A stretch of 5,233 nt of DNA. Source: a virus. Lineage: Duplodnaviria > Heunggongvirae > Uroviricota > Caudoviricetes. Shown here piece by piece: positions 1-5,233 of the stretch (position 1 is the stretch's first letter; each line of letters opens with the position of its first letter). The notes under the pieces were generated by a model. It did not search any database. It was not told the origin of the DNA and worked only from the letters and a program-made list of their open reading frames with translations. The stretch lies in the IMG/VR virus record IMGVR_UViG_2663762627_000003; one strand, written 5' to 3'. Made by a program: the position numbers and the translations under genes.

Positions 1-75
1 TACACTCTGCAGCTGAGCAGTTCCTCTAACTACGACAACCTGAACGGTTGGGCGNNGNNNGNGNNNNGACNGTAA
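1..75 (+). CDS. Possible 3' end of an unidentified upstream CDS, interrupted by ambiguous bases
   Basis: Frame 1 is open from the window edge (YTLQLSSSSNYDNLNGWA...) through the N-containing block to a TAA at 73-75. This 54-nt stretch is 29/54 G+C, unlike the AT-rich cargo to its right. No motif recognised; the N block prevents a clean reading. Confidence 0.2.
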   Translation, partial: YTLQLSSSSNYDNLNGWAXXXXXX

Positions 76-288
76 ATTATGACGGGAAACAATTTACGTA
101 TCCGGTTGCTGATGAGTGGCCGGGATTTTTACAAACAGAAATTGTTTTTGGGATTAATAAGTTATCTCTAAGCTAAGACGCTCAAAGCAAGAGATTATTT
201 TACTGTACGTAGCCATCTGGAATTGTGGCTGTGTTAAAACGCTCGAGATTTTTTGGATATCCAGTTATACTCCGCTTAGAAATCATTC

Positions 289-298: not shown

Positions 299-1345
299 AT
301 GGCGGTAAAAGTTGTTGATCTTTTTTGCGGTGCTGGCGGTTTAACGCACGGCTTACATTTGGCCGGATTGGACGTTGTCGCAGGCATTGATTTAGAAGGT
401 GAGTGTCGTGTTGCATACGAAAGCAATAATGATGCACTTTTTATTGAAAAAGATATATCTCTGGTGACAAAAGATGAAATCGAAAATCTTTTTGAAGGGG
501 CAAGTGTTAAAGTATTGGCCGGATGTGCACCTTGTCAGCCATTTTCTAAATATACTCAGGGAAAAGATAAAAAAAATGATAAAAAGTGGCCGTTATTATA
601 TGAGTTTGAACGTTTAATAAAAGACACGAAACCAGAAATAGTTACAATGGAAAACGTTCCTGATGTGACAAAACATTCTGTCTATGATGATTTTTATAAT
701 ACCTTAATAGCATTGGGTTATTATGTTTGGGCAAATAAGATTGAATGTGTAGATTTTGAGGTTCCGCAAAACAGAGTGAGGCATGTATTACTCGCATCTA
801 AATTTGCGCCGATTTCTCTGATGAAACCACAAACATCGGTAAAGCTGACAGTTAGGGATTGCATTGGTAATTTACCTTCGATTGAAGCGGGACAAGCAGA
901 TCCAAAAGACCCTCTCCATAAGGCGAGTAGATTGAGTGAAATTAATCTCAAACGTATTCTACATTCAAAACCGGGGGGGACATGGAGGGATTGGCCTGCT
1001 GAATTAATCGCTTCATGTCATGCCAAGAAAAGTGGGCAGGGATATGCCAGTGTTTATGGTCGTATGTCTTGGGATAAACCGAGTCCAACGATAACTACAC
1101 TTTGTTATGGTTTTGGTAATGGACGTTTTGGTCATCCCGAGCAGCATCGTGCAATCTCACTTAGGGAAGCAGCATTACTTCAAACGTTTCCTGTTACATA
1201 TTCATTTACCCAACCGGGCGAGCCGATCAAAATGAAAAATGTCGGGCGTATGATAGGTAATGCTGTTCCTGTAAACTTAGGTAAAGCGATTGGTCTTTCA
1301 ATAGTACATCATTTGAAAGAGTTTCACCCCGCCGCTCTTAAATAA
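299..1345 (+). CDS. DNA (cytosine-5)-methyltransferase, Dcm/C5-MTase family, 348 aa
   Basis: Canonical C5-MTase motifs in the correct order: motif I DLFCGAGG (AdoMet binding, nt 323-340), motif IV GCAPCQPFS with catalytic Cys79 (codon 533-535), motif VI ENV (650-658), motif VIII QNRVR, motif X GNAVP near the C-terminus. The variable region between VIII and IX is consistent with a target-recognition domain. Confidence 0.9.
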   Translation: MAVKVVDLFCGAGGLTHGLHLAGLDVVAGIDLEGECRVAYESNNDALFIEKDISLVTKDEIENLFEGASVKVLAGCAPCQPFSKYTQGKDKKNDKKWPLLYEFERLIKDTKPEIVTMENVPDVTKHSVYDDFYNTLIALGYYVWANKIECVDFEVPQNRVRHVLLASKFAPISLMKPQTSVKLTVRDCIGNLPSIEAGQADPKDPLHKASRLSEINLKRILHSKPGGTWRDWPAELIASCHAKKSGQGYASVYGRMSWDKPSPTITTLCYGFGNGRFGHPEQHRAISLREAALLQTFPVTYSFTQPGEPIKMKNVGRMIGNAVPVNLGKAIGLSIVHHLKEFHPAALK

Positions 1346-3220: not shown

Positions 3221-3315
3221 GTGTGATTGCATTAAATTGCATGTTAAACAAAAGCATAATCTATATCAGTCAATCAGCCAGTGGCAAGGTGTTGTGATTA
3301 CAATGCAACTGCATT
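3221..3315. promoter_or_regulatory. Putative promoter/operator region of the DUF262-HEPN operon, with TTGCAT direct repeats and an AATGCA-N2-TGCATT inverted repeat
   Basis: TTGCAT occurs at 3227-3232 and 3237-3242, 10 bp apart. A perfect 6-bp-arm inverted repeat AATGCAacTGCATT lies at 3302-3315. Both segments are preceded by TGTGATT. They sit between cos and the start codon at 3199. Confidence 0.3.
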
Positions 3316-3338: not shown

Positions 3339-3357
3339 GGCGAGGCGGGGAAAGCAC
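3339..3357. other. cos: cos site: 19-nt cohesive-end sequence of P2/186/P4 type
   Basis: GGCGAGGCGGGGAAAGCAC matches the P2-family cohesive end as I recall it. Its position just downstream of the portal gene end is what is expected for P2 gene order (cos-Q-P). Confidence 0.65.
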
Positions 3358-3499
3358 TGCGCGCTGGCGGTGGTGCTGATTTTATTTTTTCAGCGTCTGA
3401 GCGCGTCGTGAAGGCGTTTACTTGGCCTGCTGGGGCGTTGGTGTGTCTGCGGGATTTTTTGTGCGGTGATGAGCGTGTGAGGGCGTGATGACGGGGTGT

Positions 3500-3521
3500 A
3501 AAAAAGCCGCCCGCAGGCGGC
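3500..3521 (-). terminator. Rho-independent terminator downstream of the portal gene
   Basis: On the minus strand, 5 nt after the Q stop codon, a 6-bp G/C stem (3516-3521 pairing with 3506-3511) with a 4-nt loop (3512-3515) is followed by a run of six U (3500-3505). Confidence 0.7.
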
Positions 3522-3526
3522 GATGT

Positions 3527-4561
3527 TCAGCCGTTGTCAGTGTCCAGTGAGTAGTTTTTAAAGCGGATGACCTCCTGACCGAGCCAGCCGTTTATCTCGC
3601 GGATCCTGTCCTGTAACGGGATAAGTTCATTGCGGACAAAGACCTTTGCCACTTTCTCAATATCACCCAGCGACCCGACGTTCTCCGGCTTGCCGCCCAT
3701 CAACTGAAAGGGGATGCGGTGTGCGTCCAGCAGGTCAGCGGCGCTGGCTTTTTTGATATTAAAAAAATCGTCCTTCGTCGCCACTTCACTGAGCGGGATA
3801 ATTTTAATGCCGTCGGCTTTCCCCTGTGGGGCATAGAGAAACAGGTTTTTAAAGTTGTTGCGGCCTTTCGACTTCACCATGTTTTCGCGGAGCATTTCGA
3901 TATCGTTGCGATCCTGCACGGCATCAGTGACGTACATGATATATCCGGCATGAGCGCCGTTTTCGTAATACTTGCGGCGGAACAGCGTGGCCGACTCATT
4001 CAGCCAGGCAGAATTAAGGGCGCTGAGATATTCCGGCAGACCGTACAGCTCCTGATTAATATCCGGCTCCAGCAGGTGAAACACGGAGCCGGGCGCGAAA
4101 GGTGTCGGCTCGTTAAAGGACGGCACCCACCAGTAAACATCCTCTTCCACACCACGGCGGGTATATTTTGCCGGTGAGGTTTCCAGTCTGATGACCTTAC
4201 CGGTGGTGCTGTAACGCTTTTCCAGAAACGCATTACCGAACACCAGAAAATCCAGCACAAAGCGGCTGAAATCCTGCTGGGAAAGCCACGGATGCGGGAT
4301 AAATGTCGAGGCCAGAATATTGCGTTTGACGTAAATCGGCGAGCTGTGATGCACGGCAGCACGCAGGCTTTTCGCCAGACCGGTAAAGCTGACCGGCGGC
4401 TCATACCATCTGCCGTTACTGATGCACTCGACGTAATCCAGAATGTCACGGCGGTCGAGTACCGGCACCGGCTCACCAAAGGTGAATGCCTCCATTTTCG
4501 GGGCGCTGGCGGTCATTTTTTTTGCCGCAGGTTGCGGTGTTTTCCCTTTTTTCTTGCTCAT
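3527..4561 (-). CDS. Q: Capsid portal protein, P2 gpQ-like, 344 aa
   Basis: Full-length ORF in a GC-rich backbone, with a lysine-rich N-terminus (MSKKKGKTPQPAAKK...). Length and sequence are consistent with my recollection of P2 gpQ. Its start overlaps the stop of the upstream terminase gene (ATGA), and it sits next to cos. Confidence 0.85.
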   Translation of the reverse strand: MSKKKGKTPQPAAKKMTASAPKMEAFTFGEPVPVLDRRDILDYVECISNGRWYEPPVSFTGLAKSLRAAVHHSSPIYVKRNILASTFIPHPWLSQQDFSRFVLDFLVFGNAFLEKRYSTTGKVIRLETSPAKYTRRGVEEDVYWWVPSFNEPTPFAPGSVFHLLEPDINQELYGLPEYLSALNSAWLNESATLFRRKYYENGAHAGYIMYVTDAVQDRNDIEMLRENMVKSKGRNNFKNLFLYAPQGKADGIKIIPLSEVATKDDFFNIKKASAADLLDAHRIPFQLMGGKPENVGSLGDIEKVAKVFVRNELIPLQDRIREINGWLGQEVIRFKNYSLDTDNG

Positions 4562-5233
4562 CAGTAAAACTCCAGAATGGTGGATGTCAGCGGGGTGCTG
4601 ATACCGGCGGTGAGTGGCTCATTTAACAGGGCGTGCATGGTCGCCCAGGCGAGGTCGGCGTGGCTGGCTTCCTCGCTGCGGCTGGCCTCATAGGTGGCGC
4701 TGCGTCCGCTGCTGGTCATGGTCTTGCGGATAGCCATAAACGAGCTGGTGATGTCGGTGGCGCTGACGTCATATTCCAGACAGCCACGGCGGATGACGTC
4801 TTTTGCCTTGAGCACCATTGCGGTTTTCATTTCCGGCGTGTAGCGGATGTCGCGCGCGGCGGGATAGAACGAGCGCACGAGCTGGAACACGCCGACACCG
4901 AGGCCGGTGGCATCAATACCGATGTATTCGACGTTGTATTTTTCGGTGAGTTTGCGGATGGATTCAGCCTGAGTGGCAAAGTCCATGCCTTTCCACTGGT
5001 GACGCTCAAGTATTCTGAATTTGCCACCGGCCACCACCGGCGGTGCCAGCACCACGCATCCGGCGCTGTCGCCACGGTGTGACGGGTCGTAACCAATCCA
5101 TACCGGGCGGGAGCCGAACGGATTTGCGGCAAACGGCGCATAGTCTTCCCATTCTTCCAGCGTGTCGACCATGCAGCGTTGCAGCTCCTCGAACGGGAAC
5201 ACCGACGCCTTGTCGTCAACAAATTCACACATG
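4561..5233 (-). CDS. P: Terminase large subunit, P2 gpP-like; C-terminal (nuclease-domain) portion only, 5' end lies beyond the window
   Basis: The reading frame is open to the window edge on the minus strand, so the Met at 5232 need not be the true start. Content includes an acidic GIDATGLG segment typical of terminase RNase-H-like nuclease domains. Position immediately upstream of, and translationally coupled to, the portal gene matches P2 P-Q order. Confidence 0.8.
   Translation of the reverse strand, partial: MCEFVDDKASVFPFEELQRCMVDTLEEWEDYAPFAANPFGSRPVWIGYDPSHRGDSAGCVVLAPPVVAGGKFRILERHQWKGMDFATQAESIRKLTEKYNVEYIGIDATGLGVGVFQLVRSFYPAARDIRYTPEMKTAMVLKAKDVIRRGCLEYDVSATDITSSFMAIRKTMTSSGRSATYEASRSEEASHADLAWATMHALLNEPLTAGISTPLTSTILEFY

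Follow-up and report, generated by a model that had tools for sequence, protein, structure and literature searches.

A three-gene cargo in the P2 hotspot

The window, by which we mean the whole stretch of 5,233 nucleotides analysed here, comes from a P2-like (Peduovirus) prophage and spans its variable cargo between replication gene A and the cos/portal region. It carries a rightward MTase gene that faces a leftward HEPN gene and, behind the latter, a leftward DUF262 gene (Table 1). The G+C content is 37% in the cargo, compared with 56% in the phage core. Cargo of this kind in the defence hotspot of P2-like prophages has been described (Rousset 2022; Vassallo 2022). The variable defence hotspot of P2 is known to extend from the replication endonuclease to the portal (PMC9519451), and the window belongs to it, with variable genes between gene A and cos/portal Q. 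In P2 itself (NC_001895), the old-tin mRNA begins beside cos and runs leftward toward A-orf91, so that opposing transcription is normal for this hotspot. The window resembles P2 in having, between gene A and cos, a leftward defence operon that comes from beside cos and converges on rightward genes downstream of A. It differs in that its proteins are unrelated to those of P2 (the Old nuclease/ATPase and Tin) and in that orf91 and tin of P2 are 38 bp apart and do not overlap. Few E. coli carry the cassette: among 5,426 complete genomes, it was found at ≥99% identity in three, and a variant at about 74-76% DNA identity in four. It also occurs in Peduovirus P2_4B2.

Table 1. Features of the window and their coordinates.
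Feature	Position	Strand	Remarks
Replication gene A (P2), 3' end	1-176	+	Left hotspot border; positions 55-71 partly N-masked
Candidate MTase promoter, TCGAGA-17-TATACT	243-271	+	Promoter scan, weak
C5 cytosine DNA methyltransferase (MTase), 348 aa	299-1345	+	PF00145; RefSeq WP_001533788.1
Convergent overlap, 22 bp	1324-1345		Last six codons plus stop of the MTase gene (+) and of the HEPN gene (-)
MAE_28990/RiboL-PSP-type HEPN protein, 239 aa	1324-2043	-	PF18737, PF18735
DUF262/GmrSD_N (ParB-like NTPase) protein, 381 aa	2054-3199	-	PF03235
Candidate DUF262-HEPN operon promoter, TTGCCA-18-TAGATT	3258-3287	-	Promoter scan, weak
P2 cos sequence GGCGAGGCGGGGAAAGCAC, 19 nt	3339-3357	+	Right hotspot border; identical to annotated cosR of NC_001895
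Portal Q	3527-4561	-	Pfam Phage_portal
Terminase P	4561-5232	-	Pfam Terminase_6C

The identification of the two converging genes as an MTase and a HEPN gene in the first-pass annotation is borne out by the Pfam matches (PF00145 and HEPN_MAE_28990). The MTase is predicted to be a full-length, motif-intact and active DNA methyltransferase: residues 4-336 match the Pfam DNA_methylase family PF00145 at 1.8e-54, and the translation contains FCGAGG, PCQPFS, ENV, QNRVR and GNAVP (catalytic motifs I, IV, VI, VIII and X). It also matches the PADLOC MTase_II and DrmMII-type models and has M.HaeIII, M.HhaI and DNMT1 as relatives in the PDB. The HEPN protein, for which RefSeq sets the start at 2034 (236 aa), matches HEPN_MAE_28990 (PF18737) at 7.6e-18 over residues 10-234 and PF18735 at 7.6e-07. 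It contains an RNxLAHG motif, three residues of which (R185, N186 and H190) do not vary in alignment A2, and is a predicted effector nuclease; 546 homologues were found. The DUF262 protein matches PF03235 (GmrSD_N) at 4.7e-28 over residues 52-190 with an intact DGSQR motif. Because its stop codon is followed by the HEPN start after 10 nt, the two genes probably form one operon. Neither the DUF262 protein nor the HEPN profile had sequence relatives in the PDB.

The type IV enzymes GmrSD, BrxU and SspE combine DUF262 with a DUF1524 (His-Me/HNH) nuclease. The window lies outside this group, since it has GmrSD_N alone and none of the three cargo proteins had a Pfam match to a DUF1524/HNH domain. 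Menshen (NsnABC) consists of NsnA, the ATPase NsnB and the effector NsnC (PMC12065111). In PADLOC, the DUF262 protein matches NsnA at 4.9e-55, but the gene downstream of it encodes a HEPN protein and the cassette has no ATPase gene, which sets it apart from Menshen as well. The closest experimentally studied counterpart is PD-T4-2 from ECOR65, a DUF262 and HEPN pair that protects against T4 (Vassallo et al. 2022, PMC9519451). Both have a two-gene DUF262-to-HEPN module, and the DUF262 protein of the window fits PD-T4-2_A (9.2e-35, residues 59-356), although it fits NsnA better. With about 1.5 kb for its two genes, PD-T4-2 is the smaller system, and its activity was seen in a clone that contained no MTase. 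The HEPN protein of the window matched no PADLOC model at E ≤ 0.01, PD-T4-2_B included, and shares with PD-T4-2 just the Pfam HEPN family PF18735, cited for PD-T4-2 in a review. The same three families occur together in the operons of MAE_28990 HEPN, ParB/DUF262 and DNA methylase genes described by Anantharaman et al. 2013 (PMC3710099), of which the window is an instance. That study predicted an R-M-like association and is silent on orientation, junction and mechanism; the searched literature contained no experimental study of an MTase-bearing member of these cassettes. Judged by these matches, the window cassette is an uncharacterised MTase-linked relative of PD-T4-2 and not a member of any named system.

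The 22-bp overlap and its relatives

The MTase gene ends in CAC CCC GCC GCT CTT AAA TAA (HPAALK*), with TAA at 1343-1345, and the HEPN gene ends on the opposite strand in TAT TTA AGA GCG GCG GGG TGA (YLRAAG*), with its stop codon at 1326-1324 (tca on the + strand). The MTase stop is thus the antisense of a HEPN Tyr codon (TAT) plus one base, this Tyr being that of a conserved YLR motif, and the HEPN stop is the antisense of T-CA across two codons of the MTase tail. Within 1324-1345, the two frames share their third codon positions. The first-pass annotation had placed the MTase end at 1345 (+) and the HEPN end at 1324 (-), with 22 bp in common, and here the list of open reading frames and RefSeq agree with it; RefSeq gives the same two 3' ends in an identical E. 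coli locus (3458-3479 of NZ_CP141736). Among long overlaps in genome annotations, many have been found to be wrong (Pallejà et al. 2008, PMC2478687), which raises the question of whether the present one arose from a mistake in sequencing or assembly or from an ORF wrongly extended. However, both stop codons are unambiguous, the overlap is just 22 bp long, and the same ends recur in five genera besides Escherichia, in two viral contigs and in the complete genomes of three E. coli strains. An artefact is refuted by these observations and retains practically no probability.

Short convergent overlaps between prokaryotic genes are well described (Rogozin et al. 2002; Pallejà et al. 2008, PMC2478687) and account for 3,035 of 42,055 well-characterised overlaps, or 7% (PMC2478687). 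The window overlap is an ordinary member of this class: two real genes on opposite strands share bases at their 3' ends, in their last codons, the arrangement is conserved in orthologous loci of related genomes, the third codon positions face each other, and the probable origin is the loss or shift of a stop codon. Its length of 22 bp exceeds that of the commonest form, a 4-bp stop/stop overlap, which is also the usual one in relatives of the cassette. Compared with the known cases, a series from terminator spacer to 4-bp overlap to overlap of 22-25 bp is visible here within one gene family.

This series emerged from a survey of homologous junctions. A profile built from 23 HEPN homologues yielded 79 loci from species-representative genomes and 55 from viral contigs, and the neighbouring genes were found by tblastn with the three window proteins. 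The DUF262 gene directly precedes the HEPN gene in nearly all of the 138 related loci. The MTase gene is more variable. In the genome set together with the E. coli and phage loci, it is convergent in 29 cases, co-directional and upstream in 5, a partial match in 2 and absent in 48; 51 of the 55 viral loci have it, 42 convergent and 9 co-directional. In the clustered loci, duplicates included, the MTase is co-directional and upstream in 13, and at least 23 loci are without any MTase. Another type of MTase in place of the C5 enzyme was considered for the loci that lack it and rejected, the downstream genes there being unrelated housekeeping genes (BrkB, ABC1 kinase, CHAD, SPFH). In a distance clustering of the DUF262 and HEPN sequences, presence and orientation of the MTase were stable within sub-clades and different between them.

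Removal of identical junctions left 57 convergent ones from genomes and viral contigs, and 55 of these fall between a 39-bp gap and a 104-bp overlap. The 4-bp stop/stop overlap (TTAA, CTAG, CTAA or TTAG) is found in 20 of the 57 loci, an overlap of 9-25 bp in 9, and one of 53-104 bp in 4, these last lengths having been obtained by extending the tblastn hits automatically as far as the next stop and not confirmed case by case. The stops abut with 0 bp between them in one locus, a gap of 4-9 bp separates them in 6, a gap of 12-39 bp filled by a bidirectional terminator hairpin in 15, and a gap of more than 280 bp in 2.

Tail-to-tail MTase and HEPN genes occur in Cyanobacteria, Bacteroidota (Cytophagales) and Gammaproteobacteria (Thalassotalea, Enterobacterales). 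From this span of hosts, we infer that the tight layout is old and inherited with the cassette. The first-pass annotation had proposed, as one reading, a recent tight fusion of two modules, in which an orphan MTase gene would have joined a DUF262-HEPN pair and left the overlap as a fresh junction scar. DUF262-HEPN pairs without an MTase do exist, in PD-T4-2 and in many cyanobacterial loci, and between clades the MTase is about 72% conserved, compared with about 30-33% for HEPN. Nevertheless, one MTase family stands tail to tail on one HEPN family in Cyanobacteria, Cytophagales, Thalassotalea and Enterobacterales alike, and the 22-bp form is older than the divergence of cassettes whose HEPN proteins are 72-86% identical. 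A junction that is spread across phyla, and whose exact 22-bp form is present in at least five enterobacterial genera, refutes the recent fusion, to which we assign hardly any probability.

The exact 22-bp overlap, with both stops in place, is found in cassettes of Escherichia, Klebsiella, Kluyvera, Erwinia and Serratia (HEPN 72-86% identical), and its length is kept in loci L006 and L140-L145. HEPN homologues at 72-85% identity, Klebsiella, Erwinia aphidicola and Serratia fonticola being among their sources, have it in P2-like hotspots, as does the Kluyvera cassette at 86% HEPN identity; Buttiauxella has a 25-bp overlap, and the overlap is 4 bp long in an E. coli variant whose HEPN protein is about 60% identical. 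Within the 22-bp clade, 12 of the 22 sites are variable, comprising 7 of the 8 shared third positions compared with 5 of the 14 other positions. The window and Kluyvera differ at four sites, all of them shared third positions and synonymous in HEPN; one of them replaces H by Q in the MTase and another turns TAA into TAG. The MTase tails of the clade read HPAALK, QPAALK, QLATLK, QTVALK, QAVALK and QPAALR, the HEPN tails after the conserved YLR read AAG, VAS, ATV and ATA, and the stops are fixed in both. This pattern of substitutions is the one expected where two C-terminal tails under seemingly weak constraint overlap at low cost, in the phase that constrains them least. The overlap lengths of 4, 22 and 25 bp all equal 1 modulo 3, and the distance from HLKE of the MTase to YLR of HEPN is 18 bp shorter in the 22-bp form than in the 4-bp variant. 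The shortening would fit a small deletion in which both earlier stops were lost.

Terminators and transcripts at the junction

According to the first-pass annotation, the junction leaves no room for terminators and neither transcript can end before it enters the opposite gene. Both statements hold for the lineage of the window. There is no intergenic space, and an 81-nt segment centred on the junction folds at -8.5 (+) and -11.0 (-) kcal/mol, which is like random sequence (z -0.17 and -0.32 against shuffles). Scans of both strands for a hairpin with a U-tract, by a tool scan and a custom one, gave no convincing terminator within the overlap, and a search of the window against Rfam at a permissive threshold returned no RNA family. 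A bidirectional intrinsic terminator, with a GC-rich hairpin and an A-run and a T-run at the stops, is therefore missing from the window junction, and each transcript must enter the other gene. The 4-bp-overlap clades also have no terminator at the junction.

The sister cassettes L092-L124 differ from the window at this very site, between the same two genes. In all 15 of their junctions with a 12-39-bp spacer, the spacer is a GC-rich hairpin of 6-9 perfectly matched base pairs between runs of A and T, as in AAAGCCTGC-nnn-GCAGGCTTT; by its structure, it is a compact bidirectional intrinsic terminator. The junction of L097 folds at -24.9 kcal/mol (z -3.9), the hairpin of L100 was detected by the tool scan, and in L115 the MTase stop codon lies within the hairpin loop. 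The P2 portal is present in the flank of 13 of these 15 cassettes. The sequence AAGCCTG at 1346-1352 of the window was considered as a relic of the sister terminator arm AAAGCCTGC and dismissed: it is present in the 4-bp-overlap E. coli variant and not in Kluyvera, and 7 nt are too short.

We also considered intrinsic terminators embedded in the opposing coding sequences. The best candidate is a + strand hairpin at 1480-1497 followed by UUUUUUAUU, which was reported by the tool scan 135 nt past the MTase stop; the segment 1470-1510 folds at -11.2 kcal/mol (z = -2.0). However, this hairpin lies opposite the codons for the HEPN catalytic motif (KARNDL), is destroyed in Kluyvera by synonymous changes that leave the peptide identical, and is absent from Buttiauxella, the 4-bp-overlap E. 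coli variant and Thalassotalea. As an antisense of active-site codons that is lost in relatives, it was rejected as a conserved terminator. On the - strand, no candidate lies within about 370 nt of the HEPN stop, the nearest being at 912-953 and 625-667, both weak. Termination at such embedded sites is accordingly given only a slight chance. Another + strand hairpin, at 1378-1413 (-10.2 kcal/mol), was set aside for its poor U-tract.

The two candidate promoters of the converging units are about 2.9 kb apart. They are weak candidates because the region contains 9 promoter-like matches, compared with 9.2 expected from shuffles; the scan of the region revealed no enrichment of antisense promoters. 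The candidate at 3258-3287 occupies a position equivalent to the start of the P2 old-tin mRNA next to cos. Past the HEPN stop, the - strand RNA, which is antisense to the MTase gene, contains C at 0.235 and G at 0.163, and this C-rich, G-poor extension is compatible with Rho loading. Past the MTase stop, the + strand RNA is no obvious Rho substrate because it is U-rich and has about as much C as G. In E. coli, Rho is known to keep antisense transcription in check (PMC6847712).

Based on these features, the fate of the transcripts may be pictured as follows. With no terminator at the junction, each RNA polymerase would run into the opposite gene, and both mRNAs would be extended as antisense RNA. 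They would probably end through Rho acting on the untranslated antisense RNA and through collision of polymerases.

Compaction or regulation at the interlocked ends

The extended transcripts lead to the main alternative, the reciprocal regulation that the first-pass annotation raised as a possibility: terminator-less convergent transcription would be a selected device in which antisense RNA and polymerase collisions set the ratio of MTase to effector. Several observations fit this proposal. The almost spacer-free tail-to-tail layout is conserved from Cyanobacteria to Enterobacterales, and the clades with 4-bp and 22-bp overlaps have no terminator at the junction. That the spacing has stayed near zero across phyla may be due to selection for coupling rather than to compaction or inertia alone. 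In E. coli, expression can be tuned by opposing or antisense transcription (PMC4731013). Antisense control of the EcoRI and Eco29kI R-M genes is documented (PMC3141266, PMC12707154), and these systems are like the window in joining a toxic nuclease to a protective MTase at a ratio open to opposing transcription. In EcoRI and Eco29kI, however, the genes point the same way, and the antisense RNA comes from dedicated reverse promoters within the R gene (PMC3141266, PMC12707154); no such promoter is evident in the window, where the opposing RNAs would be 3' extensions of the mRNAs.

Other findings speak against a selected device. A strong bidirectional terminator sits exactly between the stops in 15 sister cassettes, 13 of them in the P2 hotspot, the MTase is co-directional and upstream in the 13 loci counted above (duplicates included), and at least 23 loci do without it. 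With the promoters about 2.9 kb apart, interference would be indirect, and no antisense promoter is enriched. Because the family also has cassettes with a terminator between the genes, with a co-directional MTase or with none, cross-regulation is no requirement of the system. By analogy with the cases above, some mutual dampening of the MTase and HEPN genes is plausible. Any antisense effect on expression would then be a tolerated side-effect, or at most fine-tuning, that the system does not need. As the reason for the overlap, reciprocal regulation thus appears unlikely to us.

We rate above it the reading that the 22-bp overlap of the two tails is ordinary and inherited, belongs to a compact mobile three-gene defence cassette, and is neutral or driven by compaction; we consider this the probable explanation. 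The cassette family would always have kept the 3' ends of the MTase and HEPN genes almost touching, and the clades would differ in how: by a 4-bp stop/stop overlap, by a minimal bidirectional-terminator spacer, or, in the enterobacterial clade of the window, by the 22-bp interlock. The overlap would be cheap and stable because the shared bases encode short, weakly constrained tails whose wobble positions coincide.

A more elaborate proposal ties the interlocked, terminator-less junction to the phage life cycle as a switch. Transcription of the MTase gene and of the DUF262-HEPN operon would converge in the lysogen at low, balanced levels. Upon induction or infection, strong transcription of the P2 early operon would read through gene A, cross the MTase gene and continue as antisense over HEPN and DUF262. 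No terminator is evident between 176 and 299. If true, the switch would raise the MTase and silence the effector during the phage's own DNA replication, and the clades with a terminator spacer would be without such coupling. We regard this scenario as quite improbable.

As it stands, the overlap is of small import, and of greater interest is whether the MTase acts as a partner in self-protection. In a classical, type II-like R-M system, the nuclease would attack DNA that lacks the cognate methylation, and the host would need the MTase to survive. The linkage of the MTase to the module is nearly constant in phage-borne copies (51 of the 55 viral loci) and keeps the same position across phyla. 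Against an absolute requirement for it stand the DUF262-HEPN clades without an MTase and the activity of PD-T4-2 alone. In the record of P2_4B2 (NC_049387), a run of eight G in place of the seven at 973-979 of the window shifts the frame of the MTase and leaves HEPN and DUF262 intact; this may be a sequencing error.

The overlap is a clean example of a stably inherited short convergent overlap in which each stop codon lies in the dispensable tail of the other gene. As a by-product, the analysis yields a natural series of junctions in one family, consisting of bidirectional terminator, 4-bp stop overlap and 22-25-bp overlap, which is a handy natural test set for whether the insulation of convergent defence genes matters.

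The junction between the MTase and HEPN genes and transcription into it

In sister cassettes, which are related loci on viral contigs that lie for the most part in P2-like hotspots, we found the stop codons of the MTase and HEPN genes to be 12-39 bp apart. The spacer between them, seen in L092, L095, L097, L098, L100, L101, L104, L105, L108, L115, L117, L119-L121 and L124, is a bidirectional terminator made up of a GC-rich hairpin with A/T runs on its flanks. The hairpin loop of L115 contains the MTase stop codon, and the L095 spacer includes a tandem AATCAAG repeat as well.

From the point where replication gene A ends to the start of the MTase gene (176-299 in the window), no terminator-like structure was found; therefore, P2 early-operon transcription could enter the MTase gene, and read-through could extend past it into the antisense of the DUF262-HEPN effector operon. 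The 11 scattered N characters at 55-71, in the 3' end of gene A, represent masked positions or bases of low quality; at this place, the sequence of the identical E. coli locus (L001) is ordinary. A strong terminator-like hairpin lies directly downstream of the stop codon of portal gene Q, between Q and cos.

Positions of sequence features (window coordinates unless stated)
Feature	Position	Strand	Remark
Spacer junction	about 4650-4720 in the listed sister loci		between MTase and HEPN stops
Hairpin	101-124		within gene A
G7 homopolymer	973-979		inside MTase gene
HEPN start per RefSeq	2034	-	gives 236 aa
Alternative HEPN start, ATG	2043	-	gives 239 aa
Strong terminator-like hairpin, GCCGCCTGCGGGCGGC then TTTTTT	3506-3521	-	

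The HEPN start codon

In the region of the HEPN start (2034-2053), the upstream ATG is preceded by a GAGG motif that overlaps the DUF262 stop codon, and the HEPN homologue alignment (A2) shows the first Met of the longer form to be conserved, as MxxMxS. The longer form looks at least as likely as the one annotated in RefSeq.

Conservation of the MTase and effector pairs without it

Between clades, the MTase is conserved far better than its partners: in the viral loci L092-L124, identity to the window proteins is about 70-73% for the MTase, about 45% for DUF262 and about 30-33% for HEPN. This gap reflects either much faster evolution of the effectors or a reshuffling of modules against a conserved MTase. 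About 48 loci among L008-L081, mostly from Microcoleus and other Cyanobacteria, carry DUF262-HEPN pairs without an adjacent MTase of the window's family. The genes downstream of these pairs are unrelated (BrkB, ABC1 kinase, CHAD, SPFH), and many Microcoleus DUF262 copies align to that of the window over the N-terminal about 170 residues only.

In NC_049387/LR595873 (Peduovirus P2_4B2; L004, about 3793-3800), the G-tract is G8 instead of G7, so that the MTase is broken into two ORFs; HEPN and DUF262 are intact. The additional G stems either from an error in sequencing or from slip-strand switching to an OFF allele. If the allele is real, the phage's host tolerates the DUF262-HEPN effectors in the absence of the MTase.
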